A model generated the notes under the pieces. That model did no database searches, was not told the DNA's origin, and saw only the letters and a list, made by a program, of their open reading frames with translations. Of a stretch of 58,661 nucleotides of DNA, positions 29,210 through 58,661 are shown piece by piece. This stretch comes from an uncultured Acidobacteriota bacterium. Lineage in GTDB: Bacteria > Acidobacteriota > Polarisedimenticolia > J045. The stretch covers positions 1 to 58,661 of the forward strand of contig CAVPCQ010000034.1 in the NCBI GenBank assembly GCA_963702425.1. The letters run 5' to 3'. How positions within the stretch are numbered: the stretch's first letter is position 1; each line of letters starts with the position of its first letter. Made by a program: the position numbers and the translations under genes.

Positions 29210-29219
29210 GGCGCGCTCG

Positions 29220-30296: not shown

Positions 30297-30468
30297 CCGC
30301 GCCGCTCCCGGTTCGTCACCGCGGGAGTATACGGTGCCTGCCCGGCCCCTCGACGCGCCGCGGGCGCACCCCGGCCGGCCGTGGCAGGTCGGGCCCGCGC
30401 GCACGATAATCCGCGCCCGGACCCGGCACGCGGATCGTCCGGCGCCGTCATGAGAGGAGCGCTGTCCC

Positions 30469-31941
30469 GTGAGACGCCTGGTCTTCCTGCTGATCGCCCT
30501 GGCCCTGCTCGCCGCGGGTTGCAACCGGCCAGGCCCTTCCGTGATCCTCGTCTCGATCGATTCCCTGCGCGCCGACGAGCTCGATCGTACGGTGGGAGGA
30601 AAGGCGGTCGCGCCGCGGCTGTCCGCGCTGGCCAAGGAATCGCTCCGCTTCGACCGGGCCGTGGCCGCAGCCCCCTGGACCACTCCTTCGATGATGACGG
30701 TCATGACCGGCCTGCACCCGCGCGCGCATGGCGTCGCCGCCTATGACCGCATGGTCTCTCCGTCCGTGCCCCAGCTCGCCCAGCAGTTCAAGGACGCCGG
30801 CTACGCGACGGCGGCCTTCGTGCCGGCCGCCACGCTCCGGACGTCGTTCGGCTTCGGTGCCGGATTCGACGTCTATACGGAGGAGCACTACGGCCACGAC
30901 AAGCGCTCCTCGAAGCAGCTCGTGCGCGCCGTGACGGAGCAGCTCGCCGCCTTCAACGGGAAGCCGTTCTTCCTCTGGGTGCACCTATGGGATCCGCACT
31001 ACGACTACATCCCGCCGCCGCAGTTCGATCTGTTCCCGCAGGGTGAGCGTCCTCCCAGCGAGGACCTGCAGTGCCTGCGGTGGTACGAGAACGCCGTCAC
31101 CCCGGCCCAGGCGCTCTACCTGAAGGGGCGCTACGAGGGCGAGGTCCTGTTCACCGACAAGTTCTTTGGCAATCTGCTGGACACGCTGGGCCGCGAGGGA
31201 CTCGCCGACACGACGGTCCTGGCGGTGATGGGTGATCACGGCGAGGCCTTCCTCGAGCACGGATGGCTGACCCACGCGGGGCGCGTCGACGAGCCGGTCG
31301 TGCACGTGCCGCTGATGCTGCGCTGGCCCGGTCACATCGCTCCGCGGCGCGAGGCGGCTGTGGTCTCGACCGCGCAGCTCGGCCGGACGCTCCTGCAGCT
31401 GGTGGGACTGAGCCCCGAGAAGTTCGGCATGGAAGAGGCGCTGCCGCTGGTCGAGCGACCGCAGGATCCGGCGGTCGAGCCGATCGCGATGACCGAGACG
31501 CTGCGCGACGCGTGCTTCACCGGGCTGGTCGGACAGCGCTACAAGTACGTCGTCGAGCACCGGTCCTGCCGCGAGAATCTCTTCGACCTCGCCGCGGACC
31601 CCGGCGAGCAGAACGACCTCGCCGCCGCCCAGCCGGAGCAGCTGGCGCGCTACCGCGCGATCCTGTTGGAGCGCCTGACGAAGCTGGCCGACGCTAGGAT
31701 TCCGCAGGCGTCGCAACCGCCCGAGGTAGTGCAGTCGCTGGAGAAGGCGCTGCGCTCGATCGGCTATGTCGGCAAGAAGCGCGCGGCGGGCGAGGCCGAT
31801 GGGCCGGAGTGCCCCGTCGCGACGGGCGCCGTCCGGCCGGTTCCTATGGGCGAGCCCGGCGGGCCGGCGTGTCCGTCGGAAGGGGCGATGCGGTGCCTGG
31901 GCGGGCAGCGCGCGACGCGGACGGAGGCCGGGACACGGTAG
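30469..31941 (+). CDS. Sulfatase/alkaline-phosphatase-superfamily lipoprotein
   Basis: LAAGC lipobox; SIDSLRAD, APWTTPSMMTVMTG, HLWDPH, GDHGEAFLEHG, LFDLAADPGE, LRSIGYV. Confidence 0.9.
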   Translation: MRRLVFLLIALALLAAGCNRPGPSVILVSIDSLRADELDRTVGGKAVAPRLSALAKESLRFDRAVAAAPWTTPSMMTVMTGLHPRAHGVAAYDRMVSPSVPQLAQQFKDAGYATAAFVPAATLRTSFGFGAGFDVYTEEHYGHDKRSSKQLVRAVTEQLAAFNGKPFFLWVHLWDPHYDYIPPPQFDLFPQGERPPSEDLQCLRWYENAVTPAQALYLKGRYEGEVLFTDKFFGNLLDTLGREGLADTTVLAVMGDHGEAFLEHGWLTHAGRVDEPVVHVPLMLRWPGHIAPRREAAVVSTAQLGRTLLQLVGLSPEKFGMEEALPLVERPQDPAVEPIAMTETLRDACFTGLVGQRYKYVVEHRSCRENLFDLAADPGEQNDLAAAQPEQLARYRAILLERLTKLADARIPQASQPPEVVQSLEKALRSIGYVGKKRAAGEADGPECPVATGAVRPVPMGEPGGPACPSEGAMRCLGGQRATRTEAGTR

Positions 31942-31949
31942 CCGAGGCT

Positions 31950-32200
31950 TGTTCCTCGCCCTGACCCCGGCCGCCTTGCCCCTCAACGAGTTGCGATCCT
32001 CTGCCGGATTCCCGAATCGACCGCGGACGCCCTCCGTTGCTCTCAGCCTCTACCGCCGTCATCGCTCGTCGATGCTCAACTGCGTCCTTGCCGTCGCCTG
32101 GACTCGCGTCGCGATCTTCGCCAGCGGCGCCGACTTCTTCATCGAGAACCTCGCGCTCCGCCGGCACCCTGTCCTCCTCCAGACGAAGAACCCCCGGCGC
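31950..32200 (+). mobile_element. Degenerate 5' scar of an integrase-core (rve) transposase element, copy 1
   Basis: Homologous over about 240 bp to 47874-48125; encodes decayed MLN..LAVA....AIFA..AD...ENLALR. Confidence 0.7.
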
Positions 32201-45732: not shown

Positions 45733-45866
45733 CGCCGTACCTCCAGCGTGACCGCCGGCGGCACGTCTGTACGGACGGACAGAAGGCCCGCCCCACGGCG
45801 GCCCGACCGCAGGCATCCACCCCGCGTTCGTTGCCGCGGAACCCCTGTCCCTCGCCACAACCCCTG

Positions 45867-47872
45867 GTAGGGTCGAGGACTGGCGCGGTACCCCTTGGAC
45901 GCGGCCTATCCGTTGCTCCCCGTTTCCTCTGGGAGTGCCTCACTAGCCAGATCGTGGGCCCGTTTCCAGCCCCCGCCACATCGCACGCAGCAAGCGGATT
46001 TCCCGCACTACGCGCTCCTGCACACTTCGCATCAAGGGTTATGAAACCGTTCGGCCGGAGCGACTTTCGGTGATGAGGACACGAGGTATCGGATCCGGTA
46101 ATCGCCGAATAGTCCGAGAGTCTCGTACAGCCATCGCCTACTCCACCGCTTCCAGCCGAAGCCGGGGCGCAATCGGGCCCGCGCCAGGTGACGCCTGATC
46201 TTCTCTTCTACCCAGTTTCGGATGAACGCCAGACACCGGCTCGAGTGCCCGTGCGCGAAGTAAGTCACCCAACCGCGCAGGATGGGATTGATCTTCTCGA
46301 CCAACCTCCTGGTCGGTTGGGAACGAAGGCGGCGAAACCACGTCTTGACCTCGCGTAGCAACGCCGTCCGGTTCTTCAGCTGCGGCGTGCGCAGCGGCAT
46401 CCACCGCCCTGCACGACTCCGCACTCGGCGAAACTCAAAGCCGAGGAATCCGAAGCTCTCCCCTCGCGTCAGGTCCACGTTCCGGCTCTTCTCCTCGTTC
46501 ACCTCCACCCGCAGCTTGGCCAGCTCCTCCCGAAGCCGTTTCTCCACCGCTCGACGAAGCCACGCATGACGCGGATGAGAGTCCACCAACAGCACCAGGT
46601 CGTCGGCAAACCGAGCGTACTCGATCGCCGTGAATCGACCGTAGCGCGTGACCTCTTTCGCCCGCTCCAGCATCCTGTCCACCTCGTTGAGGTACAGATT
46701 GCTCAGCAAGGCTGAGATCACACCGCCTTGAGGAACTCCCACCTTCCCGGAAGCCTTCAGGATCATTCGCAGCAAGTGCATCACGTCCTCGTCATCGACT
46801 CGCTTGGCTACCTTCCCCAACACGATGGCGTGTGCCACCGTGTCGAAGTAGGAACGCAGGTCGAGATCGATGACATACGTCTTACCTTGAATGATCGCAT
46901 CCGAGACCCGTTGCACCGCGTCCTGCGGTCTTCGCCTGGGTCGGTAGCCACATGACCCCGACTGAAAGCCCGCCTCGAAGATCGGTTCCAGGATGAGCTT
47001 GAGCGCTCCCTGGACCACCCGGTCCCGGATGGTTGGGATCGACAGGACGCGGAACTTGCCGCCCGCCTTGGGAATCTCAACCTTCCGGACCCGTAGGGGA
47101 CGATGGATGCGTTCGCTCAGTTCCCTCCTGAGCTGCTCCACGAAGCGATCCACGCCCTGCGCCTCGATCGCTTCGAACGTGACCCCATCAATCCCCGGGG
47201 CCCCGTTGTTCTTCTTGGCGAGTCGATACGCCTCTCGTAGCGTCTCCGTCTTGCACACGTGCACATACAGTCCCCAAAAGCGCCAAGACGGCTCGGCCTT
47301 CGCCTTGACGTATATCCTTCGTCTCAGGTCTTGCAGATCGACGGGTGCTTTTGTCATTTCACCCCTGCCTTCCATGTTGACGAAGGATTCGTGTGCAGCA
47401 GGGCCCCTTCGCTCCACGGGCGTTACCCCGCTTCTTCGCTACTTCGGACCCGGCCGCCACCGTCTCGTCTTCGGTCGATTTCCCGGGGTCTCCGGTCATT
47501 CGACCTACCTTGCTCCGTCGATTTCTCGACGGGACGAGGACGGCTTCTCCAGTTGCTCGGCATGTCCTTGTCACCGTGCTGCCCCTACCACCCCGCCGGA
47601 GTGACCCGCCGCGTCGGTCAGATTGCGACGGACCATGCTGCCTTCGCCCCGAGGCAGAGAGCTCGGCCTCCGGAATCATCATTTGTCGAGGCCACCTCTG
47701 GGTTCACTCGCGTTGCGGCCCGGTGACTCGCTCACCATCCCGAAGATGGCTTTGTCAGTCGGCTTCACCAGATTCGTTTCCTCCACTGATGCGACCCGAG
47801 CTACGGGGCTTCTGACTTTTGCCCCCGGTGGGACTCACTCCCACTGAACATGCCAGCCTTCGCTGGACGCAC
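45867..47872 (-). mobile_element. Complete group II intron (ribozyme plus intron-encoded RT/maturase)
   Basis: 5' end GTGCGTCCAGC at 47872; domain V-like GAGCGCGTAGTGCGGGAAATCCGCTTGCTGCGTGCG; domain VI ending CCTCGACCCTAC at 45867. Confidence 0.9.
46032..47357 (-). CDS. ltrA: Group II intron reverse transcriptase/maturase without an endonuclease domain
   Basis: APGIDG, LSIPTIRDRVVQ, GVPQGGVIS, YARFADD, FGFLGF, X-domain INPILRGWVTYF; no C-terminal HNH. Confidence 0.95.
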   Translation of the reverse strand: MTKAPVDLQDLRRRIYVKAKAEPSWRFWGLYVHVCKTETLREAYRLAKKNNGAPGIDGVTFEAIEAQGVDRFVEQLRRELSERIHRPLRVRKVEIPKAGGKFRVLSIPTIRDRVVQGALKLILEPIFEAGFQSGSCGYRPRRRPQDAVQRVSDAIIQGKTYVIDLDLRSYFDTVAHAIVLGKVAKRVDDEDVMHLLRMILKASGKVGVPQGGVISALLSNLYLNEVDRMLERAKEVTRYGRFTAIEYARFADDLVLLVDSHPRHAWLRRAVEKRLREELAKLRVEVNEEKSRNVDLTRGESFGFLGFEFRRVRSRAGRWMPLRTPQLKNRTALLREVKTWFRRLRSQPTRRLVEKINPILRGWVTYFAHGHSSRCLAFIRNWVEEKIRRHLARARLRPGFGWKRWSRRWLYETLGLFGDYRIRYLVSSSPKVAPAERFHNP

Positions 47873-47873
47873 T

Positions 47874-48139
47874 GCCTCGCCATGACCCCGTCCGCCTTGC
47901 CCCTCAACGGGTTGCGTTCCGATGCAGGAGATCCGAATCGCCCGCGGAAGAGCCCGGTCGCCCTCAGTCCGTACCGCCGTCATCGTGCGTGGATGCTCAA
48001 CCGCGCCCTTGCCGTCGCCCGAACTCTCCTCGCGATCTTCGCCAACCGGGCCGACCTGATCCTGGAGAACCTCGCGCTCCGACAGCAACTCGCTGTCCTC
48101 CGACGGAAGCACCCTCGACCTCGTCTCCGCGCGGCCTGA
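47874..48139 (+). mobile_element. 5' scar of an integrase-core (rve) transposase element, copy 2
   Basis: MLNRALAVARTLLAIFANRADLILENLALRQQLAVLRRKHPRPRL, then a stop; abuts the intron 5' end. Confidence 0.75.
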
Positions 48140-48519
48140 CGATTCCGCTCGACCAGTCCAGCGCCGCGGCCTCCTTCTGGAGCGCGTGTGCCGTTGCGGG
48201 AGGCAGACCGCCGACAGCTCTGTCAACCGGCGGGCATGGCCGTCGCCGACACACGCCGGGGTGCGTTCGGCCCGCGTGTTTGCCTGCCATTCCAAGCCGC
48301 GGGAGCCATCAGCAGCGCGCGGACTCGATATTGGCGAAGGACAACACCCGAAGCCGGCGATGCGATGCGCGCATCTCGCCCCGGATCACTTGCGGGGTGC
48401 CGCGGCGGCGTTAGATGCTGTGCCTGGCACGGCAACCGCCAGCGGGACTGACACCCCCGTTGAGACCCGGCACGCGGTCGCGCACGCTGCGCGTTCTAAG
48501 TCGTTTTCGCGCTGATACT

Positions 48520-48559
48520 TGGGGAGTCGTCCAACGGCAGGACAGCGGACTTTGGATCC
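48520..48559 (+). tRNA. 5' half of tRNA-Gln(UUG), broken in the anticodon stem (probable attachment junction)
   Basis: TGGGGAGTCGTCCAACGGCAGGACAGCGGA-CTTTGGA-TCC, closely similar to the 5' half of the tRNA-Gln(CUG) at 16390; no T-arm or acceptor 3' strand follows. Confidence 0.85.
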
Positions 48560-48572
48560 ATTAAGCATGTCG

Positions 48573-48610
48573 GCGGTAACTTGGCTCCCATCAGCAAGTT
48601 GCCGCTTTTT
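48573..48610 (+). terminator. Intrinsic terminator directly after the tRNA half
   Basis: GCGGTAACTTG...CAAGTTGCCGC-TTTTT. Confidence 0.75.
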
Positions 48611-48622
48611 CTATCAGATAGC

Positions 48623-48694
48623 AGTGTCACCTAGTGTCACCCAGTGTCACCAAACGCACCGCGATTCTGGAAATTGCGCCACGATGTGCCACGA
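48623..48694. repeat. Phased direct repeats, candidate integrase arm or Xis binding sites
   Basis: AGTGTCACC x3 (48623, 48633, 48643) and GCCACGA x2 (48678, 48688), all with 10-bp periodicity. Confidence 0.7.
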
Positions 48695-48738
48695 CTTCGC
48701 GCCGGTCAGGGTGGAGTTAACCCGGATATGCAGGGTAG

Positions 48739-48774
48739 AAAAAGGCTGGCCCGCCGGTTAGAGGCCGGCGGGCC
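48739..48774 (-). terminator. GC hairpin, possible minus-strand terminator
   Basis: GGCCCGCCGG-ttagagg-CCGGCGGGCC followed on the minus strand by AGCCTTTTT. Confidence 0.5.
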
Positions 48775-48887
48775 GTGACAGCGCGATCGGCCCCAGGACG
48801 AGTGGAAGCCGTTGACACAGTACCATGATCGGGTGTAGAAGTCACAGTGCGATCGAGAGCCGATTAGAGGTCGGCAGAAAGGACGAG

Positions 48888-49502
48888 ATGAACGAAGCCG
48901 AAACCAACCAGACCAAAGCCGAGCAGTTCTGCCGGCAGTTCATGGCCGAGATCCGCGCCATGACACCGCCGGGCGGTCAAGAGCACGCGCTGATGACCGC
49001 CTCGCGGGTGAAGCACAGCGCCGCCGCAGGGCATCGGCAGCACGGCGTCGTCGCGCTCCTGCGCCGCGCGGCCGTCCGCCGGACCGCTCCCCGCCGGCTC
49101 GGCACCCGAAGGCACCGCCGCGCTGCTAGGGGCGCCCGCGCCGCACCGGCGGACGATTCTGGTCCCGAACCACCCCCACCCCCGAAAAGTGATCTGATCG
49201 CCGCCTGCGCCGCCCTGGCGCTGCTGGCCGTCGCACTCGCTGCCGGATTCTTCGCCGGCGCTGGCGCCGCCCTGGCTCTGCCCGTGTTCGGCGCCGTCGC
49301 GCTGCTGACGCCCGGTGATCTGGCCGAACGGCTTCGCTGCTCGGTCTCCCAAGTCAGGAAACTCTCCCGGCTGGGCAAGATCGAGACCGTCTACGTCGGC
49401 CGGCTCCCGAGGTACACAGAGGCCGCGGTCGACGACTACGTCCAGCGCAGCACGACGCGCATCTCGACGCTGGCCGTCGCGCGGCGCCGAGGTGGCCGGT
49501 GA
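48888..49502 (+). CDS. Protein with a C-terminal excisionase/HTH_17 DNA-binding domain
   Basis: LLTPGDLAERLRCSVSQVRKLSRLGKIETVYVGRLPRYTEAAVDDYV; start codon uncertain. Confidence 0.7.
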   Translation: MNEAETNQTKAEQFCRQFMAEIRAMTPPGGQEHALMTASRVKHSAAAGHRQHGVVALLRRAAVRRTAPRRLGTRRHRRAARGARAAPADDSGPEPPPPPKSDLIAACAALALLAVALAAGFFAGAGAALALPVFGAVALLTPGDLAERLRCSVSQVRKLSRLGKIETVYVGRLPRYTEAAVDDYVQRSTTRISTLAVARRRGGR

Positions 49503-50434
49503 GCGCCCGCCGGAAGGCCGCAACGTTCCGGTTCGAGGTCCCCCCATCGCAAGCGCACGACCCGGCAGCCGTCGCCCTGGCCGATACCGCCAACGACTAC
49601 ATCGACAAGATCCGGTGCGCGTGGTCCAAGAGTACGGAAGCGATCATCGAGACCGGCCGCCTGCTCAACGAGGCGAAGGCGAACCTGAAGTACGGGACCT
49701 TCCTCGGGATGGTCGCGATGAGCCTGCCGTTCTCCCGGTCGTGGGCCTTCAAGCTGATGAAGATCGCCAGCGACCCCCGGCTCGCAGATGTTGCGCATGC
49801 GCAACATTTGCCCGCGAAGGCCGAGACGCTGTACGAGCTGACGAAGCTCGACGATCGGGAATGGAAGGCCGCCGAGAAGAGCGGCCTACTCCGCCAGGAT
49901 GTCGAGCGGCGGGAGATCGTCGCGATCCGAAAGCCGAAGGTCCGGCCGGCGCACGTTCCACCGACGCCAACGGCCGCCCGCGTCGTCGTGGACGCCGAAC
50001 CTGTCGATCACGAAGACGAGGCGCTCCCGGACGGTGCACAGCGCGATCATGAACAACACGAAGTCGAGCTCCCGAAGTTCAGGAAGCTCCCCGGGAAGCC
50101 CCTGCTTGAGCGCCTGACCCGAATGAAGGACACGCTTGCGTCCTACGTCTACGCTCTCGAATCCCTGGACTTCGATGACGTCCCACCGAGCGAAACCATC
50201 TCCGCTCTCGGCCGCGAGCTATCGAGCAGCGGCGCAGCGATCCAGCGTTTCGCCAACGGCCTACCGAAACCGAAAGGTGCCGGGCTGGCTGACCCCAGCA
50301 TCTTCCTGCGGATCGCCACCTCGACCTTGTTCGATGGTCTGGAGCGATGCACTCCAAAGCAGCGACGGGAGGTCTTAGCGGCCCTCACGCAGTGGGTCGC
50401 AGATCTCAGCGCTCGTAACTGGGACGACGCATGA
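49499..50434 (+). CDS. DUF3102-domain phage protein
   Basis: AIIETGRLLNEAKANLKYGTFLGMVAMSLPFSRSWAFKLMKIA...TLYEL. Confidence 0.75.
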   Translation: MSARRKAATFRFEVPPSQAHDPAAVALADTANDYIDKIRCAWSKSTEAIIETGRLLNEAKANLKYGTFLGMVAMSLPFSRSWAFKLMKIASDPRLADVAHAQHLPAKAETLYELTKLDDREWKAAEKSGLLRQDVERREIVAIRKPKVRPAHVPPTPTAARVVVDAEPVDHEDEALPDGAQRDHEQHEVELPKFRKLPGKPLLERLTRMKDTLASYVYALESLDFDDVPPSETISALGRELSSSGAAIQRFANGLPKPKGAGLADPSIFLRIATSTLFDGLERCTPKQRREVLAALTQWVADLSARNWDDA

Positions 50435-51335
50435 CCGCCGCCGTGCTCGACCGCCCCGTCTGGCGGATGGCCGACGAGCCCCCGGCCGCCCGAGCCCGGG
50501 ACGGGGGGTGCGCCGTGATCCCCCGCACCCTGTTCCCGTCCGAGCTGGCGACGGACCCCGGATCAAGAAGCTCTCCCGGCTGCTGGGCGTGCCACGGGCC
50601 GCGGCGGTCGGTCACCTGCTGATGCTCCTCTGGGCCGAGGCCAGCCTGCACCACGACGGCAGCAACGCGCTGTTCGTCGATCCCGAGGACCTGGCCGAGG
50701 CGGCCCTGTACCAGGGCAACGGGGCCGACCTGGCCGGCGCCCTGATCGAGGCCCTGCTCGCGACGAAGGTCGACGGCGGCGGGCTGCGGCTGGCGCTCTA
50801 CGAAGACTGCAACGGTCCTTATCGCCGGGAGCGGGACGCCAAGATCGCCAACGCGAAGCGCTACCGGGACGACCAAAGCCGCCAAGGCCGAGGAGCAAGA
50901 CAAGGCCGAGCCGAACAGTAAGACGAATACATTCGCGAATGCAGTCGCGAATACCAGTACTAGTCTTTCTTGTCTTTCTGTTCTTCCTGTGAAGAAAAGC
51001 ACGCGCACGCGCGAGCGCGACCGCTTCCCGCCGGGGGCGGGGCGGTCGCTCGCAGTTACCCGGAGTGGGAGCCGCCCGACGACGGGCTAGACCGCCGGTC
51101 TGAAGCAATCGCCCGGTCCGCTCGGTGAGGCCAAGGGCGAGAGCCCGCCTGAGAGGGTCCAGGCGCCAGCGGTCGACCTGCGCGGCCCGATCGCCAAGCA
51201 GCGGGACACCTTCCGCAAGCTGGCCGACCAGGCGATCGAGGCTGGCGATCCGGTCAAGGCCGACCGCTACAACGGCTTCGCGGCTGAGGCGCAGGCGAAG
51301 CTCGACGCGCTGCCTGCGCTTGAGGCGGTCCAGTG
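50431..51335 (+). CDS. Putative phage replication initiator (replisome-organiser-like), frameshifted in this sequence
   Basis: LATDPRIKKLSRLLGVPRAAAVGHLLMLLW N-terminal pattern, ERDAKIANAKRYR, low-complexity AT-rich linker at 50940-51000; boundaries approximate. Confidence 0.5.
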
Positions 51336-51611
51336 AGCGCGGAGACCCGTCCGGTGACGCGGCTGGAGTGCGAGGCGGCCCGTGCGTTGCTTCGGCGTGC
51401 CCGCAAGGCCGACGCTGCCGGCGAGTTCATGAAGGCCGCCAAGCTGCGCCTCAAGGCCGCCCAGATCCTTGCAGGCACCGCGAGGCCGAGCGCATGACTT
51501 ACATACACGACATTCGTCAGTCAGTTAGCCTGGTTTTTTCCGTAACTGTCCGCGAGCAACGGCGCTCGACCCATTTGCGCACGCGGGTCGTCCCGGTCCA
51601 AGGGAGGCTGA

Positions 51612-51946
51612 ATGGTCAGTAAGCCGAAGGCGCCGGCTGGCCTAGGGGCTGCTGGGCGGCGGTTCTGGTCTGCGGTGGTCGAGGAGTACGAGCTGGGCCC
51701 GGCGCAGTTGGAGGTCTTGCGGGTGACGTGCGAGTGCCGGGACCGGCTAGAGGAGGCGCGGGCGGAGATCAAGTCGGCCGGGGCGTACCTGGCGCTGAAG
51801 TCGGGGGGGCTCCGGCCGCACCCGGCGCTAGCGGTGGAGCGGGACTGTCGATCGGGTTCCTACGCGGTCAGCGGGAGTTGGGGGTGACGGCTGTCGACCC
51901 TGACGAGTCGCGGCCGCTGACGGCGCTGCCGGGCCGGCGGATCTGA
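51612..51946 (+). CDS. terS: Terminase small subunit, P27 family (frameshift near 51850)
   Basis: PKAPAGLGAAGRRFWSAVV...LEVLRVTCECRDRLEEARAEI...GGLRPHPALAVERD...RELGV; GGGAGG RBS. Confidence 0.85.
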
Positions 51947-51947
51947 C

Positions 51948-52355
51948 GTGCCGACGCGGCTCCGTCGACGGGTGCGGCGCGCGGTCGAGCCGCTCCATTT
52001 CGGGATCGCGTTCAGCCTGGCGGCGCGGCTCGACGGGCCGTGGTCGCTCGACCACGGCGGGACCCGGATCGCGCCGGCGGAGGCGGTTCGGCTGGCCGAG
52101 CTGCACCTAGCCGAAGTGCTGACGCTGTGGGCCGGGCTCACCGCCGCGGCGCGCCGCCGGCTGGCGACCCCGTCGCCGAAGCGGCCGGCTGAGGCCCTGG
52201 CCGATGACGCGCTGTGGGCGGCCGGAGACCGGCTGCCGTGGGCCGTACGCGAGGCGCTGGGCCGGCGCTGTCCGTCGACCCGGCGCGGTATCGAAACGCT
52301 CTTGGAGCGGTACGGCGTCTCGCTGGCGCCTGCCGGCCGGAAGGAGTTGAAGTGA
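51948..52355 (+). CDS. Hypothetical protein of the element
   Basis: Open frame coupled to terS and to the next gene; no recognised motif. Confidence 0.45.
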   Translation: MPTRLRRRVRRAVEPLHFGIAFSLAARLDGPWSLDHGGTRIAPAEAVRLAELHLAEVLTLWAGLTAAARRRLATPSPKRPAEALADDALWAAGDRLPWAVREALGRRCPSTRRGIETLLERYGVSLAPAGRKELK

Positions 52356-52659
52356 AACCCGAGAACGCGATGACCTGGCCGTCGCCCGAGCGCGTCTCCG
52401 CCATCGCCGAGTTGGCGATCGCGGGGTGCCACCCCCAGGGGCCGCAGGGGCGCTCCGGCGGCCTTTGAGCGTGACCGGGGCCTGCGCCCTGCTCGCGCAC
52501 CTCGCCGCGCTCCTGGCGGACGCTGCGCGGTCTGGGGAGGCCGAGGTAGCGCTGCTGGCGGGGACCGTCGCCCCGCTGCTGCGGGCTTCGTCCGACTTAC
52601 TCGACGAGGCGGTTACTGAATTGGAACGTCGAGCGGCTGCGGCCGCTGAGGCGAGTTGA
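52352..52659 (+). CDS. Hypothetical helical protein (one apparent frameshift)
   Basis: AAGGAG RBS, GTGA overlap with the previous gene, Ala/Leu-rich helical C-terminus. Confidence 0.4.
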
Positions 52660-52733
52660 CCCCGGACCGATAGAGACGGCGCGTGCACGCGCCACTAGAG
52701 CCCGGTGCACCGGGCAGAAAACGGAGACAGGAA

Positions 52734-54012
52734 ATGCCGTACCCGAACAAAAGGGCCTGGTCGAGCGGTCGCTGGAGACCATCCTCGACGGCCAGAAGAA
52801 GTCGCTGGACCGGATCGCCGAGTTGGACGAGCGGGTGTCGCACATCGAGGGCCGGGCGAAGGGCGGGAGCGGGATCGAGTTCGCGGCAGCCCGGCCGACG
52901 CGTTGCCGGCGCGGCAGCGCGACCTGGTCCGGCTGTACGCCCGGATGGGTGCCAAGGACCCGGCGCGGGCCGCGGCCTGTGAGGGCTGGCTCAAGAATCA
53001 CCTCAAGATGCAGCTTCCGGCCTTCGCGGCGGGGCTGGCGCAGTTCGCGGCCGAGAACGCGAAGTTGGCCGAAGCGCTGGGAGAGCAGAAGGCGTACTTG
53101 AACGAGAACACCGGCTCCCAGGGCGCGTTCGGGGTGCCGCAGAACGTCGAAGCCGAAATCTTCCGCGTGATCGAGGACAACAGCGTAGTCCGTCGCGTCG
53201 CGCGGCGGCTGGCGGTCTCGACGAAGCGGACGGCGCTCGTCAACGTCGCGTCCAACGTCACGACCTACGTCCTCGACGAGCTTGGCGCTTCGATCACGGC
53301 CGGCGAGCCGACCTTCGGTTCGGCGACTCTCAACGTGAAGGACTACGTTGCTTACGGCAACTGCTCCATCGACGTGCTGCAAGACGAGGTAGTCGGCCTG
53401 CTCAACTTCTTCGCGACCAACGCGGGCGAGATGATCGCTGCGAAAGAGGACAACCTCGCGCTTGAGGGCACGACGACGGACACCGTCGTGGGGCTCGGCT
53501 CGCAGACCACGACGAACGTCTACACGGTCGCCCGGATCTACACGCAGGTGCTCACGTCGGCGACGAACAGCCCGCAGATTCCGACGCTCGCGCAGTTCTC
53601 CAACGCGATCTACGGCATGGCGCAGAAGTCTTCTCGCATCGGGACTTCCGCGTTCTTCATGCGGCCCGGGACGTGGGGCGCCATCGCCTCGCAGGTGACC
53701 ACGAGCTTCCCGCTGATCGGGCCGGCCGGCTGGTTCGGTCAGCCGGCACCGCAGGACCCGCGGGCCGACGGCAGCTTGTTCGGATACCCGGTTTACTGCA
53801 CGCCGCAGATCGCGACGTCGACGGCCGGCTCGAACATCTACTTCGGCGACTTCAAGAACATGGTCTTCGGCGATCGGACGGGCGTCGACTTCGGGATCAC
53901 CGACGCTGAGAAGTTCCAGTACGGCCTCATCTCGCTGCGCGTCATCAAGCGCACCGGAATCGTGGTCGCGAACGCGCACGCGTTCTCCATGATGCAGAAG
54001 GCGACGTACTAG
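52734..54012 (+). CDS. HK97-fold major capsid protein with an N-terminal coiled-coil (two apparent -1 indels in the first 160 nt)
   Basis: GAFGVPQNVEAEIFRVIEDNSVVRRVA, EPTFGSATLN, EDNLALEG, FFMRPGTW, SLFGYPVYCT, IYFGDFKNMVFGDRTG. Confidence 0.88.
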
Positions 54013-54129
54013 CAGCGGGGTCCAAACGCGTCGCGGGTCCGCTGCCGGGTCGTGTCCCCGCATTCGCCCGTGACGCACCCGCCGGCGGCCGGTCCATTCA
54101 ACCGGCCGCCGGCATCTCCGGAGGCTTCC

Positions 54130-54681
54130 ATGAGCGTGACGCTGCGCAAGGTCAGGATGGCGACCGAGTTGTATCGGCTCGGCGTCAGCCGCTACACCCT
54201 GCCGAGTCTCGACCAGCCGGCCGGCGAGGACCCGGACGGCCCGACGATCGGGGAAGTCGCGCTGACCGACCCGCGGCCGTCGCCCGAAGCGGAGGCTGTC
54301 GCGGCCGATCTGCGCCGGCGGCTCGCGGACCGGATGTTGTCGCGTTTGAACGAACAGCAGAAGGCGGCGGTCGGGCTGCATCTCGCCGGCTGGACGCACG
54401 CAGACATCGGCCGGGCTTTCGGGTTCAGCCGTTCGCGTGCGGCGCAGGTAGTGGCCGGCGCGGCCGCGGTGCTGGCGGCCGAGGACTGGCCGGCGCCGCC
54501 GCCGAATCCGCCCGGCCGGCCGCGTCGCGAGCGTACTCCGGACGAGGAGCTTCGCGAGCGGCTGGTCGCGACGTGGCACGCGCTGCGCGGAGATGGGCTG
54601 CTGAGCGACGAGCGCGAGCGGCTCGAAATCGAGCTGTCCGAGCTTCGCCGGCAGATCCAAGCGGCCGAGAAGTCGCCATGA
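54130..54681 (+). CDS. Sigma70 region-4-like HTH regulator
   Basis: SLDQPAGEDPDGPTIGE, LSRLNEQQKAAVGLHLAGWTHADIGRAFGFSRSRAAQ. Confidence 0.7.
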   Translation: MSVTLRKVRMATELYRLGVSRYTLPSLDQPAGEDPDGPTIGEVALTDPRPSPEAEAVAADLRRRLADRMLSRLNEQQKAAVGLHLAGWTHADIGRAFGFSRSRAAQVVAGAAAVLAAEDWPAPPPNPPGRPRRERTPDEELRERLVATWHALRGDGLLSDERERLEIELSELRRQIQAAEKSP

Positions 54682-54854
54682 CCGCGCCGGCGCCGACGAT
54701 CTGGATTCGCTGGATCTCACCGCCGGCCGCTTCGGCGACGGGCTCACCGCCGCGGCGCGCCGCGGGTGGTCGCGGAGGTCTTCATCTCGCGCGGGGACGC
54801 GCTGCCGATGCTGGAGTGCGAGGTCCCGGCGGAAGCGAAGAGACGGAGGACGGC

Positions 54855-55232
54855 GTGAGCTACCAGTTGAAGTTCGACATGGCGAATCCGTCGTGGGACG
54901 CTGGCTTCGACGCGCTCCGCGACTTCCTGATCGACCACGAGAAGCAAGCGTGCATCTCGCTCGACACCGTCGATCGGTGGCACCGCCAGACTCCCGGGCG
55001 TTCGGAGTGGCTATTCCGCAAGACTCGGGAGCGTTTCGAGGAGGGCGCCGACTTCCTCCGCGACGAAGACGGGACGGTGTACCTGACACCCGCCGGCTAC
55101 CTGGTGCTGATCTTCAACTACCAAGACGAGATTGCGTGGTTGTTGCACCGGGAGATGGTCGACGCGATGCAGCGAGCGAAAGCATGGCGCTATCTCGGGC
55201 AGTTCTTCCCGCTTGAGGACGGCGCGTCATGA
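54855..55232 (+). CDS. ORF6N-like (phage antirepressor-type) DNA-binding domain protein
   Basis: ISLDTVDRWH...RERFEEGADF...YLTPAGYLVL...DEIAWLLHREMVD; GGAGG RBS. Confidence 0.65.
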   Translation: MSYQLKFDMANPSWDAGFDALRDFLIDHEKQACISLDTVDRWHRQTPGRSEWLFRKTRERFEEGADFLRDEDGTVYLTPAGYLVLIFNYQDEIAWLLHREMVDAMQRAKAWRYLGQFFPLEDGAS

Positions 55233-55549
55233 CCGATCTCCGCCAGCCGTTCGCGCTGTTGGCGTCGGTTAGGCGCGGGCTCGAAGCGGTTCAGTGGCTC
55301 CGCGAGCACAACCTGCCGGTGCCGCAGGAGCACGTCGAGCTGGTCGCGCTGATCGCTGGCGAGCGCCGCATCGCCGCGTTTCGCAAGCTCGGGCGGTCGC
55401 ACATCCCGGTGACGGTGATCGACATCGAGGCGATCGCCCGCGGAGAACGTGACGAGAACGTGTGTCGCAAGGACTTCGCTCCGACTGAGGCCTACGAGAT
55501 CCGAAGGCCGTCGAGAAGGAAGAGGCAAGGCTGGCCGCGCTGCGGATGA
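55229..55549 (+). CDS. ParB/Srx N-terminal-domain protein (partial or frameshifted)
   Basis: LIAGERRIAAFRKLGRSHIPVTVI...ERDENVCRKDFAPTE. Confidence 0.7.
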   Translation: MTDLRQPFALLASVRRGLEAVQWLREHNLPVPQEHVELVALIAGERRIAAFRKLGRSHIPVTVIDIEAIARGERDENVCRKDFAPTEAYEIRRPSRRKRQGWPRCG

Positions 55550-55951
55550 AGGCGGTAAACCCTCCGCAAACTTTGCGGAGGGTGGAGAGCCTGGAGAGGC
55601 GCGACAGAAGGCGGCGAAGGCGACGGGACCCCTGAAAATGTCCGACGACGGACATTTTCGACGCTCACCATGCCCATCAGTTCCCGCATCTGTAGAGGCG
55701 GGACCTCATCCGATCCGGGGCCCCCTTGACTCCGGGAGCCGGGGAGCGTATCCCTTCCCTCGCCTTGAAAAAGGCGGGACCGCCGCCCGGTGGAACGGAC
55801 GACGGCCCCTAAGCTCACGGGAGCCGAGGCCCCCGATGAACCTGCTGCACAGCCTACCAAAAGCCCGCACGTCGGGCACCTGTTTACCCCCACTAACCGG
55901 GGTCTCGGTTCCCTCCATTCAGCGCGGCCGATCCGCGCACGGAGGGGAACC

Positions 55952-56125
55952 ATGAATCGAGAAGAACGAAGGCACCTCGCGGCGATGTTGAAGGTCTTGG
56001 CCGAAGAGTTGAGCCACATCGTCAAGCTGCTCGACCGAGCCGAAGAGGGCCGTGTCGCGGCGCGGGTGCTCGTGGCCCGTCGCAACCTCGAGGACGCCTG
56101 CATCAGGCTGCTGGAGGCCCAGTGA
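55952..56125 (+). CDS. Small hypothetical protein
   Basis: GGAGG RBS, MNREERRHLAAMLKVLAEEL..., coupled to the next gene. Confidence 0.5.
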   Translation: MNREERRHLAAMLKVLAEELSHIVKLLDRAEEGRVAARVLVARRNLEDACIRLLEAQ

Positions 56126-56358
56126 GCGCCGCGGTGGTGACGCTGCTGTTCATCGTCGCCGGCCTGCTCGTCGCGGCGATCGGGACGGCCTGCCACGCCT
56201 GGTCGATGGCGGTCAAGGCGTCGGAGGATGTCTTCCGCATGGAGCGGCTGTTGCGGACCCGAGAGACGAAGGACCTGCGGGACGCGCGGCGGGCAGAGAT
56301 CGCCGCGGCCGAAGCGGAAGTCGCCGCGTGGTGGCAGGGCTACCAGAGGGGGGCGTGA
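56122..56358 (+). CDS. Small single-TM protein
   Basis: Hydrophobic N-terminus, GTGA overlap with the previous gene. Confidence 0.5.
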   Translation: MSAAVVTLLFIVAGLLVAAIGTACHAWSMAVKASEDVFRMERLLRTRETKDLRDARRAEIAAAEAEVAAWWQGYQRGA

Positions 56359-56461
56359 TGGCGACGCTCACGATCACCGTACCCGACACCCTGGCCGCGC
56401 TGCCGGCGGACCGGCTGGACGCGATCCTCGGCGCCGTCGCGGCCATGATCCGACGGTCGCA

Positions 56462-57342
56462 CTAGCACTGCCGCGCGGCCAGCTCCAGCGCCAGCGGCAG
56501 CCCCTCCACCAGCGCCACCACCTCCCGGCCGGCCGGCTCGTAGCCGTCCAGCGGCCCCAGGAAGTTCGCCAGCAGATCGAGCGCCTCGGCCTCCGGCAGC
56601 GCGTCCAGCCGCTCCACGGCGCCGCACAGCGCCCCACACAGCGCGGCGTCGCGGCTGGTGACGATGAGAGCACGCTCGGCGGGCAGCACCGCGCGGCACA
56701 GCCAGCGGCCCAGCTCGACGTCCCACAGGTCGTCGAGCACCACCAGCAGCCGGCCCTGGCCGGCGAGCGCGGCCCGGAGGATGGCCCCGCGGCGGTCGAT
56801 GTCCGGCTCGTCCTTGAGGTCGAGGCCCAGGTCGAGCGCCAGCCGGCCCGCGAGATCGGCGGGCTGGGAGGCCCACCCCACGTGGAGCCACAGCACGCCG
56901 CCGGGGAAGCGGCCGGCCAGGTCGCGGCCGAGCTTCTGCGCCACGGTGGTCTTGCCGACGCCGCCCATGCCCTGCACCGCGGCGCTGATGGCCACGTCAT
57001 CCCCGGCCAGCAGCCGGCCGGTCAGGCGGCCGAGCACGGCGGTGCGGCCCACGAAGGTGTCGGGTGGCGGCGGGGCCACGAAGCGGGGGCGGGGTGCGGC
57101 CGCGTGCTGCCGGAGGTGCGCCGCGGGCTGGCCGGGCCGCGCTTCTTCGAGCGCGGCCCACAGCTCGGGGAACCTGCCGTGGCGCTCGCAGTAGTCGAGG
57201 AGCAGTTGGATCTTCTGGCCTTGGTCATGCCCGTGGTGAAGCTGCCGTAGACCGGCCGGAAGTGATCGGAGCAAAGGGCGTTCAGTTCTTCGTCATCGTA
57301 CGCGGCCATGAGGTAGTCACGGATCGTGGCGCTAGCAGGCAT
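56462..57342 (-). pseudogene. Effector-associated-domain (EAD-like) plus NB-ARC STAND NTPase, truncated after GLPLA and frameshifted near 57220
   Basis: IRDYLMAAYDDEELNALCSDHF...KIQLLLDYCERHGR; FVGR, Walker A GMGGVGKTT, Walker B LLVVLDDLWD, LIVTSRD, GLPLALEL, then a stop. Confidence 0.85.
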
Positions 57343-57394
57343 CGGCAGCTCCCTTTACGTGTCGTTGGCATCGATTGTAGCACACCGAAGGTCG

Positions 57395-57627
57395 AATGTG
57401 AAATGTGAAATGTGGAATGTACGATGTACGATGTACGATGTGAAATGGCGAATGTGGGATGGCGAATCGAAAATCGCAAAATCACAAATCGCAAATCACT
57501 CAGAATGACGCGCTCCCCCAACGCACCACGCAACGACCCGCAGGTCGCCGCACCACGCCTTCGTCACATTCCAGATTCCACATTCCACATTCCACATCCA
57601 ACATCGCACATCCAACATCGTACATCC
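57395..57627. repeat. Heptamer tandem-repeat tracts arranged as an imperfect inverted pair
   Basis: (AATGTGA/GATGTAC)n 57395-57445, (AAATCGC)n 57464-57496, (CCACATT/CAACATC)n 57565-57627. Confidence 0.85.
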
Positions 57628-57701
57628 AAGACAGATCGTACAAACTCAACAACCAAAACCATTGACAGACCCTCAAGTTTGCACGATGATGGTCCAGAAC
57701 T

Positions 57702-58635
57702 ATGGTTACCCTACCTGATCGAATCCGACTATTGGCGCATCCGCAACTTCCTCCGCGAGGTCTTCCTGCTTAACGGCCGGCTCGAACATAGCTGGCATGT
57801 GGCGCGGCTCGATCACTGGCGCTACCACCACATCCGGACCTGCCAGGTTTGTGCACCGTTCGAGCAAGTGACCGCGGCCTGGGAGTCGCCGGACGGGCAG
57901 ATCGCAGCCGTCGTGCACCCCATCGGTGGCGGCGAGATCCGCCTGCACGTCCATCCCCGCTTCCGCACCCCGGAGCTGGAAGACGAGATCTTTGCCTATG
58001 CCGAGGAGCAGTACGCGGAGCGGCCGGCAAACGGGAACCATTTCATGGTTGTGCCGGTCTTCGCGGATGATGTCCTCCGCCGGCAAGTCCTGACCCGCCG
58101 GGGATCATCAAATACCCCGGCGGGGGCTGCCACTGGCGGCGCGACCTGGCCGCGCCGCTGCCTGAGGCGCCGGTTCCGGACGGGTACACCATCCGCTCGA
58201 TGGGTCCGCTCGCCGAACATCCCACGCGCAGTTGGGCTTCGTGGCACGCGTTTCACGCCGGCGAACCGGACGAGAACTACGAAGGGTTCGCCTGGTACCG
58301 GAACATCCAATCCGCCCCGCTCTATCGCCACGACCTGGACATCGTCGCGGCCGCGGCCAACGGGGAGATTGCCGCCTTCTGCACGATCTCCTACGACGAT
58401 GCCACCCGCAGCGCCGTGACCGTGATGGTGGGGACTGCGGCCGAACACTGGCGCCGCGGCTTGGGCAAGGCCGTCATGCTCGAGGGGATGCGGCGGCTCG
58501 TGCAGATGGGCTGCACGCGCGTCTTTTTCGACCGCCACCGAGGAACCCGCCGGCGCCCTGTACCGTTCGGTGCACCAGGCGATGAAGGTGACGGATACCT
58601 GGATAAAAGAGTGGGCAGGGGTCAGGGGGCAGTGA
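57702..58635 (+). CDS. GNAT-family N-acetyltransferase (several apparent frameshifts)
   Basis: DYWRIRNFLREVF, LHVHPRFR, YRHDLDIVAAAANGEIAAFCTI, motif A EHWRRGLGKAVMLEGMRRL. Confidence 0.8.
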
Positions 58636-58661
58636 TCAGTGGGCAGGGGGCAGGGGTCAGG

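Follow-up and report, generated by a model that had tools for sequence, protein, structure and literature searches.

A tRNA-integrated island with adjacent small terminase and HK97-type capsid genes in an Acidobacteriota genome, a probable phage satellite with relatives in the same class

What kind of element encodes a small terminase subunit (TerS) and an HK97-type capsid protein and no other part of a virus? Acidobacteriota are among the commonest soil bacteria, and to our knowledge little is known about their phages. We analyzed such a locus in a stretch of 58,661 nt (the window), which is contig C34 of a 42-contig draft genome of an uncultured soil Acidobacteriota bacterium (91% complete, 5.85% contamination). 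A sequence-only reading had proposed here a phage satellite of a new family. The presence of positions 48560–58661 was compared among four genus mates, the class was surveyed by a PF05065 profile search of 119 genomes, and gene order and TerS were compared by BLASTP in six islands (those of the window, C37, L007, L037, L040, and L041). Criteria for phage-inducible chromosomal islands (PICIs) were taken from the SatelliteFinder model, as given in the available part of PMC10085698.

The limits of the element were defined by the following features.

48521–48559, plus strand: attL, the first 39 nt of tRNA-Gln(UUG), identical to bases 1–39 of contig C35
48572–48610, plus strand: terminator-like hairpin with a U-tract just inside attL (fold −21.9 kcal/mol, z −3.66)
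57382–58661, no strand: strain-specific DNA up to the contig end, absent from the genus mates

The island is inserted in tRNA-Gln(UUG), with the first 39 nt of the tRNA duplicated. The attL piece begins with the acceptor stem and reaches the 3' side of the anticodon stem, after which the sequence departs into the island; C35 opens with the same 39 nt and continues as the intact tRNA. C35 and the tRNA-Gln locus of the genus mate G313 are syntenic (92% identity), and the left flank in C34 (27794–32040) and C35 correspond to the two sides of that locus (92–93% identity). The predicted attachment repeat is thus real as a 39-nt 5' piece; there is no whole tRNA at the site (neither ARAGORN nor Rfam called one at 48521–48559), and the repeat partner lies on C35. 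Position 56465, proposed as the right limit, is not a boundary: the whole of 48560–58661 was missing from all four genus mates, and the island extends to the contig end because the intact tRNA-Gln starts another contig. The left part and the middle of the tRNA-integrated island lie in the window. We failed to find an integrase in the window or adjoining the tRNA-Gln partner on C35, where the PICI model places one at one end of the element. The hairpin inside attL, which a simple terminator scan overlooked, is also present in the C37 island (z −4.71). The strain-specific terminal DNA contains 7-nt tandem arrays with an inverted partner (57382–57626), a GNAT acetyltransferase gene split over two frames, and, where the contig stops, 14-nt repeats.

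The packaging and shell genes occupy the middle of the island.

51533–51588, no strand: conserved non-coding motif, a T6 tract and a 32-nt core (51547–51578; alignment with C37 and G401:C128)
51612–51946, plus strand: P27-type small terminase TerS (PF05119, phrog_1496, phrog_83)
51948–52355, plus strand: ORF of 135 aa (GC3 0.89, strong coding signal)
52426–52659, plus strand: ORF of 77 aa (ORF call)
52734–54012 (ORF 52705–54012), plus strand: HK97-type major capsid gene, broken (PF05065, E 1.3e-32)

The T-tract gap pointed out at 51500–51610 is real and contains the motif of about 50 nt, 25–80 nt upstream of terS, which is conserved in two further islands; its pattern occurred at only three places in the 119 class genomes (the window, C37, and G401:C128). 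No significant RNA fold was obtained for 51533–51588 in a fold-energy test. The identification of a P27 TerS was upheld, with PF05119 matched over positions 8–71 of 98 at 25.2 bits, barely over the cut-off of 24.7, by an ORF that is not intact (51612–51887, 91 aa, early stop). Its C-terminus probably carries on in the frame of ORF 51728–51946, as judged from a GC3 frame switch near 51850 in the frame plot and the translation read by eye; the frameshift is only inferred, because the 49-aa tail alone gave no Pfam match.

The capsid matched PF05065 over profile positions 1–279 of 280, and its reading frame is also not intact: by coordinates counted by hand from the translations, the ATG (52734) lies in one frame, the N-terminal coiled coil (about 52742–52894) in a second, and the body (52864–54012) in a third. 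Homologues of 442–443 aa are 65–69% identical to it. By tblastn, protein P0004 aligned with residues 7–48 in frame 2 and residues 62–442 in frame 1, which puts the N-terminal extension of the window capsid out of frame. As first read, about 800 bp separate TerS from the capsid gene, a space that holds the two ORFs and neither TerL nor portal; these ORFs had no Pfam, PHROG, or PADLOC match. Searches of 48560–58661 with Pfam and PHROGs revealed no TerL, portal, protease, connector, tail, or holin gene. The island therefore has the small terminase of the PICI model and lacks the components forbidden there (tail, holin, portal, and head-tail connector), and of an intact HK97-like prophage only TerS and capsid are present, without TerL, portal, protease, and tail. 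In contrast, the order in locus L048 is TerS–TerL–portal–protease–capsid.

Upstream of the motif, regulatory and replication genes were encoded.

48825–49502, plus strand: ORF with a C-terminal HTH_17 excisionase/AlpA-like DNA-binding domain at 49302–49448 (Pfam, PHROG)
49499–50434, plus strand: DUF3102 protein, 311 aa (PF11300, 27.9 bits, above the cut-off)
50508–50921, plus strand: replication-initiator-like ORF, 137 aa (phrog_9474, E 1.7e-8)
51091–51507, plus strand: two short stretches of coding-type GC3 in different frames (frame plot, three-frame translation)

All three genes named in this part by the sequence-only reading (Xis, DUF3102, Rep-like) were recovered. The HTH_17 domain scored 26.1 bits (E 1.1e-5), just short of the Pfam cut-off of 27; the ORF also matched the excisionase/regulator family phrog_66 (E 6e-4), not AlpA itself, and was 42% identical over 124 aa to the HTH protein of L037 (BLASTP). 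Its real start is probably downstream of 48825. The DUF3102 protein has a 46%-identical relative in G401:C75. The Rep-like ORF covers positions 12–124 of 288 in phrog_9474, the N-terminal part of the family only, and is half the length of its relative in L041 (286 aa). The absence of a primase holds for the window copy and L041, but most relatives have a primase-helicase. The stretches at 51091–51507 are possibly one broken gene.

The following features lie downstream of the capsid gene.

54052–54681, plus strand: sigma-70 region 3.2/4-like protein without region 2 (Sigma70_r4_2, E 1.1e-4; phrog_351)
54573–55232, plus strand: ORF earlier called ORF6N (only about 54820–55232 looks coding in the frame plot)
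55229–55549, plus strand: protein with ParB-like N-terminal domain, 106 aa (phrog_3264, E 4.7e-7)
55952–56465, plus strand: three small overlapping ORFs of about 57, 78, and 35 aa (translations, frame plot)
56462–57274, minus strand: N-terminal fragment of an EAD7 + NB-ARC protein (STAND NTPase), 270 aa (PF00931, E 2.5e-22)

The sigma-like protein likely starts at 54130. Its Sigma70_r4_2 match was below the Pfam cut-off in the window and above it in L007, L037, L058, and L062; homologues hold the same position in C37, L037, and L007, in agreement with the regulator proposed earlier. ORF6N was not confirmed: ORF 54573–55232 had no Pfam match at E ≤ 0.01 and only a weak match to the anti-repressor family phrog_4608 (E 4e-4), with no stretch passing. 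The ParB-like assignment was borne out, and 45 aa of this protein are 44% identical to a stretch of C37. The small ORFs had no family match in Pfam, PHROGs, or PADLOC; the middle one is hydrophobic near its N-terminus. Apart from ORF6N, Pfam and PHROG annotation bore out the gene order as a whole. The NB-ARC match stops at position 200 of 248, and the EAD7 domain was also matched. This fragment, absent from all four genus mates and without a PADLOC match, is probably cargo or a rearrangement scar within the island.

In the window copy, TerS is cut short, the capsid gene is spread over three frames, Rep is half-length, and the integrase end is unassembled. Most likely this copy is in decay or was mis-assembled. 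Elsewhere the genome is not riddled with frameshifts: long high-GC3 ORFs cover 80–84% of other contigs, with medians of 367–469 aa.

PF05065 was found at 21 places in 13 of the 119 class genomes. Seven loci are tRNA-bounded islands without TerL or portal, including the unfinished one in the window; five more have an integrase or helicase, without TerL or portal in the contig, and two are short contigs with TerS–capsid or capsid–sigma adjacency, which gives 14 island-type loci versus four phage-like ones (with TerL, portal, protease, or tail genes). Three were left unclassified. The seven islands are of the 7.5–11 kb size class and contain a replication gene, a single capsid gene with a TerS-like neighbour, in most cases a sigma-region-4 protein, and, in all but the window, a tyrosine integrase. 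Relatives with an integrase are C37, L007, L037, L041, L050, L055, L056, L057, and L059. One island, C37, resides in the same genome: it is 11.2 kb long, is bounded by a 39-nt 5' piece of tRNA-Lys(UUU), has its integrase adjoining the intact tRNA, and is visibly decayed. Besides C37, the relatives bounded by tRNA direct repeats are L007, L037, L041, L057, and L059; in these five, capsid, integrase, and replication genes are full-length, the last being full Rep or primase-helicase genes. Their gene order is common despite capsids only 25–45% identical.

The gene directly upstream of the capsid gene was TerS-like in all six compared islands. This assignment is based on PF05119 in the window, on phrog_83 in L037 (the C37 gene is 77% identical to that of L037), and on a weak phrog_1889 match in L041, to whose gene those of L007 and L040 are homologous. 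PF05119 also lies beside the capsid gene in L053 and L057. The combination of own capsid and TerS without TerL, portal, or tail thus recurs in further Acidobacteriota genomes, in islands whose genes are intact and which have attachment repeats; syntenic relatives exist, and terL and portal between terS and capsid, set beforehand as evidence against a satellite, were not seen in them. The capsids, however, are spread over two or more deep clades in which phage capsids are interspersed, so that the islands represent an architecture class and not the single new family first suggested.

Among IMG/VR relatives of three of the capsid clades, which were mostly ordinary phage fragments (portal in 100 of 136 loci), there was no clear lone-capsid island. 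No co-resident helper prophage was found: the genome, 91% complete, had no match to TerL_ATPase (PF03354) or Phage_portal (PF04860), and PF05065 capsids occur in it only twice, in the window island and in C37. Likewise, no helper was found in five genomes of the genus.

We consider it probable that the locus is a tRNA-integrated, PICI-like phage-satellite island with helper-dependent packaging, present in the window as a decaying or mis-assembled copy. The island family most likely spreads via a borrowed helper phage, because it has its own shell and packaging genes and no other virus parts. In intact relatives, excision of the island would be the work of the tyrosine integrase and the HTH protein, and replication that of the island's Rep or primase-helicase. 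TerS may direct the large terminase of the helper to a site on the island, the candidate being the conserved motif immediately upstream of terS. The capsid protein, with its N-terminal scaffold-like domain kept, would make small shells, which would still depend on the portal, maturation protease, connectors, and tail of the helper. The sigma-like protein probably sets the timing of expression.

Remnants of ordinary HK97-like prophages, left without independent life after deletion of terL, portal, protease, and tail, are an unlikely explanation. The window and C37 copies are visibly decayed, capsid clades are interleaved with capsids of complete phages, the IMG/VR relative L044 has the normal order portal–protease–capsid, and P0005 is a protease–capsid fusion, all as expected of remnants; however, the six repeat-bounded relatives keep to 7.5–11.2 kb, five of them with full-length genes, random deletion would not repeat the TerS–capsid adjacency among such divergent capsids, and island-type loci outnumber complete phage loci. 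It is similarly improbable that the capsid makes no transmissible particle and serves integrative elements as a decoy poisoning phage capsid assembly (defence) or as an encapsulin-like compartment. DNA packaging is indicated by the TerS-like gene that neighbours the capsid gene in the six compared islands as well as in L053 and L057; the capsids are PF05065 members whose N-terminal extension is long and scaffold-like, like that of phage capsids (the Pfam domain begins at residues 107–167 in the relatives), and PADLOC gave no match. Such a role would nevertheless agree with the lack of portal, protease, and TerL, with the lack of a helper in the five genus genomes, and with the disturbance of helper capsid assembly by satellites reported in the available part of PMC10690885.

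It is very improbable that the islands are capsid-forming PICIs or small phages with a portal and a large terminase that have diverged beyond recognition. Although several ORFs have no family match, including proteins of 687 aa (L037) and 581 aa (L056), and the L057-type IMG/VR relatives L150 and L154 pack capsid, portal, integrase, primase, and TerL into about 10 kb, the largest unassigned ORFs in L007, L041, L057, and L059 (241–316 aa) are too short for a portal or TerL, and between attL and 56465 none of the unassigned ORFs of the window exceeds 135 aa. The L037 protein resembles viral clusters including tape-measure families, not portals, which we regard as a lead only. A further alternative concerns the window copy itself, whose damage could be largely assembly error, the real copy being intact and active in part of the population at low coverage. 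The 39-nt repeat is the very start of C35, and short tandem repeats close C34, which fits a branched assembly graph of occupied and empty sites, and the genome is a contaminated draft; but there are at least three frame breaks in 8 kb, the left 45 kb has ORFs of 560–990 aa, other contigs look clean, and the sister island C37, within a 405-kb contig, is decayed too. This makes assembly error a rather improbable explanation.

The locus had been thought unlike any known satellite family, and this view was not sustained. Elements of similar kinds have been described in Mycobacterium, among tycheposons, and as EPIPs (available parts of PMC10654092 and 10.1101/2020.12.28.424599, and PMC12822802). 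PICIs, as presented in the available parts of PMC10085698 and PMC10654092, are likewise small, integrate at tRNAs by tyrosine integrases, and have TerS and a capsid-related gene, without tail or holin; their AlpA/Xis-type regulator and own primase/replicase are also paralleled, in the window copy by candidate genes; the Mycobacterium candidates resembling phiRv1 and phiRv2 combine an integrase with a major capsid gene (PMC10654092, same part). The Acidobacteriota islands differ from PICIs in phylum, in a full HK97-type capsid gene in place of a capsid-size remodelling gene, in the sigma-region-3.2/4 protein downstream of the capsid, and, in the genus-level islands, in duplicating the 5' part of the tRNA, not the 3' part. 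A prohead protease and a serine integrase are further components of phiRv1. The PICI-like tycheposons of Prochlorococcus (Hackl et al.), proposed phage-capsid hijackers, are islands associated with tRNAs that have a tyrosine recombinase, primase/helicase, and a single viral packaging gene; in the available part of 10.1101/2020.12.28.424599 this is terS or MCP alone and the hosts are marine cyanobacteria, whereas both genes are present and adjacent here.

The EPIPs of Mycolicibacterium aichiense (PMC12822802, preprint) are about 11 kb long and share with our islands TerS, major capsid protein, HTH protein, integrase, and the supply of remaining parts by a helper. They also have a tape-measure protein, which the 687-aa protein of L037 resembles by Atlas features. 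Unlike the islands, EPIPs encode a head-tail adaptor, stopper, scaffold, and serine integrase and were isolated as particles, while the Acidobacteriota islands are known from genes alone. Capsid-forming PICIs are satellites with their own capsid that take helper tails (available parts of 10.1101/2022.09.08.507074 and PMC10085698); their core components number 11, among them portal, head-tail adaptor and connector, protease, HNH, and, in the model, terL (PMC10085698, same part). Apart from an S49 protease in L058, the Acidobacteriota islands lack these components; the window, L007, L037, L041, L057, and L059 have no portal, head-tail adaptor or connector, prohead protease, HNH, or terL.

Our literature search found no paper pairing Acidobacteria with PICIs or phage satellites. 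We put forward only tentatively that these elements form a sizeable undescribed Acidobacteriota guild of 7.5–11 kb tRNA-integrating satellites, with TerS and HK97-type capsid genes adjacent and a sigma factor truncated to regions 3.2–4, which outnumber complete prophages in the class and assemble small shells of their own around a portal, a protease, and a terminase motor taken from helpers. Such a division of labour, itself as yet a tentative proposal, would fall between classical and capsid-forming PICIs. If they are satellites, the islands betray the presence of HK97-like helper phages, would provide a minimal system (one capsid gene and one TerS) in which to study the recruitment of a foreign portal and packaging motor by a satellite shell, and may open a route for gene flow, and for interference with phages, in soil. 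The distribution of class capsid genes, 14 of 21 in small islands and 4 of 21 in phage-like loci, bears on prophage annotation as well: a lone capsid match should not be taken as a prophage remnant.

The island was analyzed within a 42-contig draft genome of 5.1 Mb, with about 71% GC, 91% completeness, and 5.85% contamination. Most of the gene order proposed in the sequence-only reading (Xis, DUF3102, Rep-like protein, P27 TerS, capsid, sigma-like regulator, and ParB-like protein) was borne out by Pfam and PHROGs:

Genes of the window island, as assigned with Pfam and PHROGs
49302-49448, HTH_17 excisionase-like domain
49499-50434, DUF3102
50508-50921, Rep-like protein
51612-51887, P27-type TerS (small terminase)
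between TerS and capsid, two ORFs without family assignment
52705-54012, HK97-type capsid (PF05065, E 1.3e-32)
54052-54681, sigma-70 region-4-like protein
55229-55549, ParB-like protein

The ORF6N gene also claimed there was not confirmed: Pfam was empty, and the match to an anti-repressor PHROG was weak. As had been stated, no TerL (large terminase), portal, protease, or tail gene was found by Pfam or PHROGs from 48560 to the contig end; connector and lysis genes were likewise not found by these searches in the same stretch. PADLOC gave no match for 11 of the 12 proteins tested from the window and its relatives. A 46-nt inverted repeat (52144-52189 and 54722-54765; 91% complementary, blastn E 9e-8) encloses a 77-aa ORF together with the capsid and sigma-like genes and may have been left behind by an exchange of modules.

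The window copy is broken and incomplete. Its capsid homologues are 442-443 aa long, and its own capsid gene is spread over three frames, one with the start codon (52734), one with the N-terminal coiled coil, and one with the body; tblastn placed residues 7-48 of the homologous capsid protein P0004 in frame 2 (52766-52894) and residues 62-442 in frame 1 (52864-54006). TerS covers just positions 8-71 of the 98-position profile, and the GC3 frame plot changes frame near 51850, within terS. In our reading, TerS would continue in another frame past about 51850; a Pfam search with this alternative-frame tail (49 aa) gave no match. The Rep protein is half the length of its relative in locus L041. 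The other contigs analyzed (C35, C37, and C6) were clean, with 80-84% of their length covered by long high-GC3 ORFs (median 367-469 aa); the breaks are therefore either true decay or a local assembly error in a variant carried by part of the population.

No tRNA was called at the left end of the island by ARAGORN or Rfam. The bases at 48521-48559 correspond to nucleotides 1-39 of tRNA-Gln(UUG) and are identical to the opening bases of contig C35, where the tRNA continues intact. C35 shares 92% identity with the genus mate G313 from tRNA-Gln onwards, and positions 27794-32040 of the window contig (C34) share 93% identity with G313 DNA located 13-17 kb upstream of tRNA-Gln; since both contigs match the flanks of this G313 locus, they represent two sides of one locus. 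The stretch 48560-58661 is wholly absent from four of four genus mates, and therefore the island extends to the contig end, beyond position 56465, which had been taken for its right limit. Within this additional part are a fragment with EAD7 and NB-ARC domains, arrays of 7-nt repeats, and a GNAT gene in two frames; the right end is unassembled. Our search found no contigs that join the end of C34 and no integrase homologue beside the tRNA-Gln partner on C35.

The EAD7 and NB-ARC STAND-NTPase gene (56462-57274, minus strand) is truncated to 270 aa, with the match to the 248-position NB-ARC profile ending at position 200; its stop codon directly adjoins the last small ORF of the island, and it has no PADLOC match. 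The 7-nt arrays (57382-57626) are matched by an inverted counterpart at a distance of 105 nt, and 14-nt tandem repeats are located at the extreme contig end (58610-58660); these repeats are the likely reason for the assembly stop. The GNAT acetyltransferase gene (57412-58661) is seemingly divided between 57412-58419 and 58200-58661, possibly by another frameshift in the strain-specific part. Just left of the tRNA-Gln piece lies a group II intron (45800-47900), with a maturase/reverse transcriptase ORF containing RVT_1 and GIIM domains (46032-47417, minus strand) and an Rfam group-II-D1D4-4 match (47708-47846, minus strand). The repeat at 47873-48350, with many copies in G313 (78-91% identity) and one frame resembling a transposase N-terminus, is probably an IS fragment.

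A colinear relative of the island was found on contig C37 of the same genome. It begins with a 39-nt 5' piece of tRNA-Lys(UUU) (95696-95734), followed by the same terminator-like hairpin as in the window, and ends 11.2 kb further on with a tyrosine integrase (105838-106839) and an intact tRNA-Lys (106934-107009). The two islands share 78% identity over 37 aa of the HTH domain, about 50% in the sigma-like gene, and the start of ParB, and their capsids belong to different clades; tblastx between them yielded mostly high-GC noise and was set aside. The C37 island has decayed as well, since its primase-helicase is in fragments. About 3 kb of it (L005 9500-12500, equal to G000:C37:102500-105500) are poor in ORFs, have a GC content of 49-57% versus about 70%, and gave no match in Rfam.

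Close relatives of the window capsid were found in 3 of the 401 sampled genomes of the phylum (E <= 1e-10), and a single-sequence locus search of genome contigs found no relative. A PF05065 survey of 119 genomes of the class gave 21 places, distributed over 13 genomes, and the surroundings of these places were annotated; L007 and G401:C167 gave identical figures and were counted once. Four places are ordinary phage loci (L048, L049, L051, and L052), with the order TerS-TerL-portal-protease-capsid-head completion-tail in L048. Seven are islands bounded by tRNA repeats, namely the window island and the following six:

Lengths of the tRNA-bound islands found beside that of the window
C37 (sister island), 11.2 kb
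L007, 8.8 kb
L037, 11.2 kb
L041, 7.5 kb
L057, 9.3 kb
L059, 8.7 kb

Another five (L040, L050, L055, L056, and L058) have an integrase or replicative helicase beside the capsid on a contig without TerL or portal, with an S49 peptidase additionally present in L058. Two short contigs show TerS-capsid (L053) and capsid-sigma (L062) adjacency, and three loci (L054, L060, and L061) were not placed in any group.

Related elements carrying terL and portal between terS and capsid would have pointed away from a satellite; this arrangement was not seen in the seven tRNA-bound islands. The largest ORFs without assignment in L007, L041, L057, and L059 are 241-316 aa, too short for these four to contain an overlooked portal or large terminase. 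The gene immediately upstream of the capsid was TerS-like in the six islands compared, with evidence of varying strength; a profile of the TerS-like proteins of L041, L040, and L007 had no matches among PDB sequences. Outside these six, a PF05119 TerS also adjoins the capsid gene in L053 and L057. Duplication of the 3' part of the tRNA is the usual arrangement. It was found in the relatives from other genera (L041, L057, and L059; 45-64 nt); in the window's genus (C34, C37, L007, and L037), the 5' 37-39 nt are duplicated, and the intact tRNA adjoins the integrase.

The target tRNA of L037 was called tRNA-SeC by ARAGORN. Large proteins without assignment are encoded in L037 (6305-8365, minus strand, 687 aa) and L056 (1727-3469, minus strand, 581 aa). 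The former is nearest, by Atlas features (score 0.96-0.97), to viral clusters with 12-14% tape-measure-family members and, as a lead, would be a counterpart to the tape-measure gene that EPIPs carry; the latter has a weak LmuB match in PADLOC (E 8e-4).

In a tree of 36 capsid sequences, the island capsids fall into at least two deep clades, each intermixed with capsids of phage loci. They do not form one clade, and therefore the class is defined by architecture, like PICIs, and not by capsid descent; thus, the idea of one family stands as to shared architecture and fails as to common capsid descent. An IMG/VR search with three other capsid clades gave 136 loci, mostly phage fragments, and a local phmmer screen with few seeds, by which divergent portals can be missed, detected a portal at 100 of these loci and TerL at 40. 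Neither was found in 34 loci, 32 of which have less than 3 kb upstream of the capsid (the other two are L081 and L130), and this screen gave no clear case of a lone-capsid island among the 136. In some relatives of the L057-type capsid, a stretch of about 10 kb holds the capsid, portal, integrase, primase, and TerL genes. Five contigs of about 6-17 kb (L143, L147, L150, L153, and L154), related to this capsid type with 32-40% identity, encode a capsid along with a portal and an integrase; TerL is present in most of the five and a primase in two, and their content resembles that of cf-PICI-like elements.

The T-tract gap pointed out in the sequence-only reading does hold a conserved motif, consisting of a T6 tract and then a 32-nt core (51547-51578). 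It sits 25-80 nt upstream of terS and is also present in C37 and G401:C128, despite the different TerS and capsid genes there; among the 119 genomes of the class, the pattern was found in these three places only. RNA folding was no better than that of shuffles (z 0.19 and 0.90), and the motif was therefore read as a DNA site. Its role may be in packaging, as a cos or pac site, or in late expression, as a promoter/operator. A sigma-54 promoter was also considered and dropped, the GG-to-GC spacing, counted by eye, being wrong.

The search for a helper phage was negative: the window's genome gave no TerL_ATPase or Phage_portal match, and its only PF05065 capsids are those of the two islands. Nor was a phage-type capsid locus found in the other four genomes of the genus. 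With no helper phage found in this genome or in the other four of the genus, the helper is therefore one that we infer rather than see.

The PICI model of SatelliteFinder is built on an integrase, a regulator, a primase-replicase, a capsid morphogenesis gene, and TerS as its five core components and bars tails, holins, portals, and connectors; the same paper classes Mycobacterium phiRv1/phiRv2-like elements as PICI (PMC10085698). [quoted passage not shown] EPIPs, with 11-kb particles, have TerS, MCP, scaffold, adaptor, stopper, tape measure, and serine integrase (PMC12822802). Mulch/Flayer satellites and cf-PICIs possess portal and terminase genes (PMC10690885), and the VEIME paper mentions terminase small subunits, its text lacking the term 'capsid protein' (PMC9618062).

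Judged by gene content, the Acidobacteriota islands would be PICI-like in their working: at the family level the content agrees with the PICI test, and the window copy falls short of it on the integrase. They do not belong to the cf-PICIs. They differ from the described kinds by phylum, by a TerS adjoining a full capsid gene, by a sigma region-3.2/4 protein (alignment A4), and, in the window's genus, by duplication of the 5' and not the 3' part of the tRNA. Among the matches listed, our literature search found no paper pairing Acidobacteria or Acidobacteriota with satellites or PICIs. The initial observation was largely right, and its interpretation as a new satellite family stood in part: a capsid-carrying island kind is already described in other phyla, and comparative genomics supports the Acidobacteriota islands as a putative satellite family.
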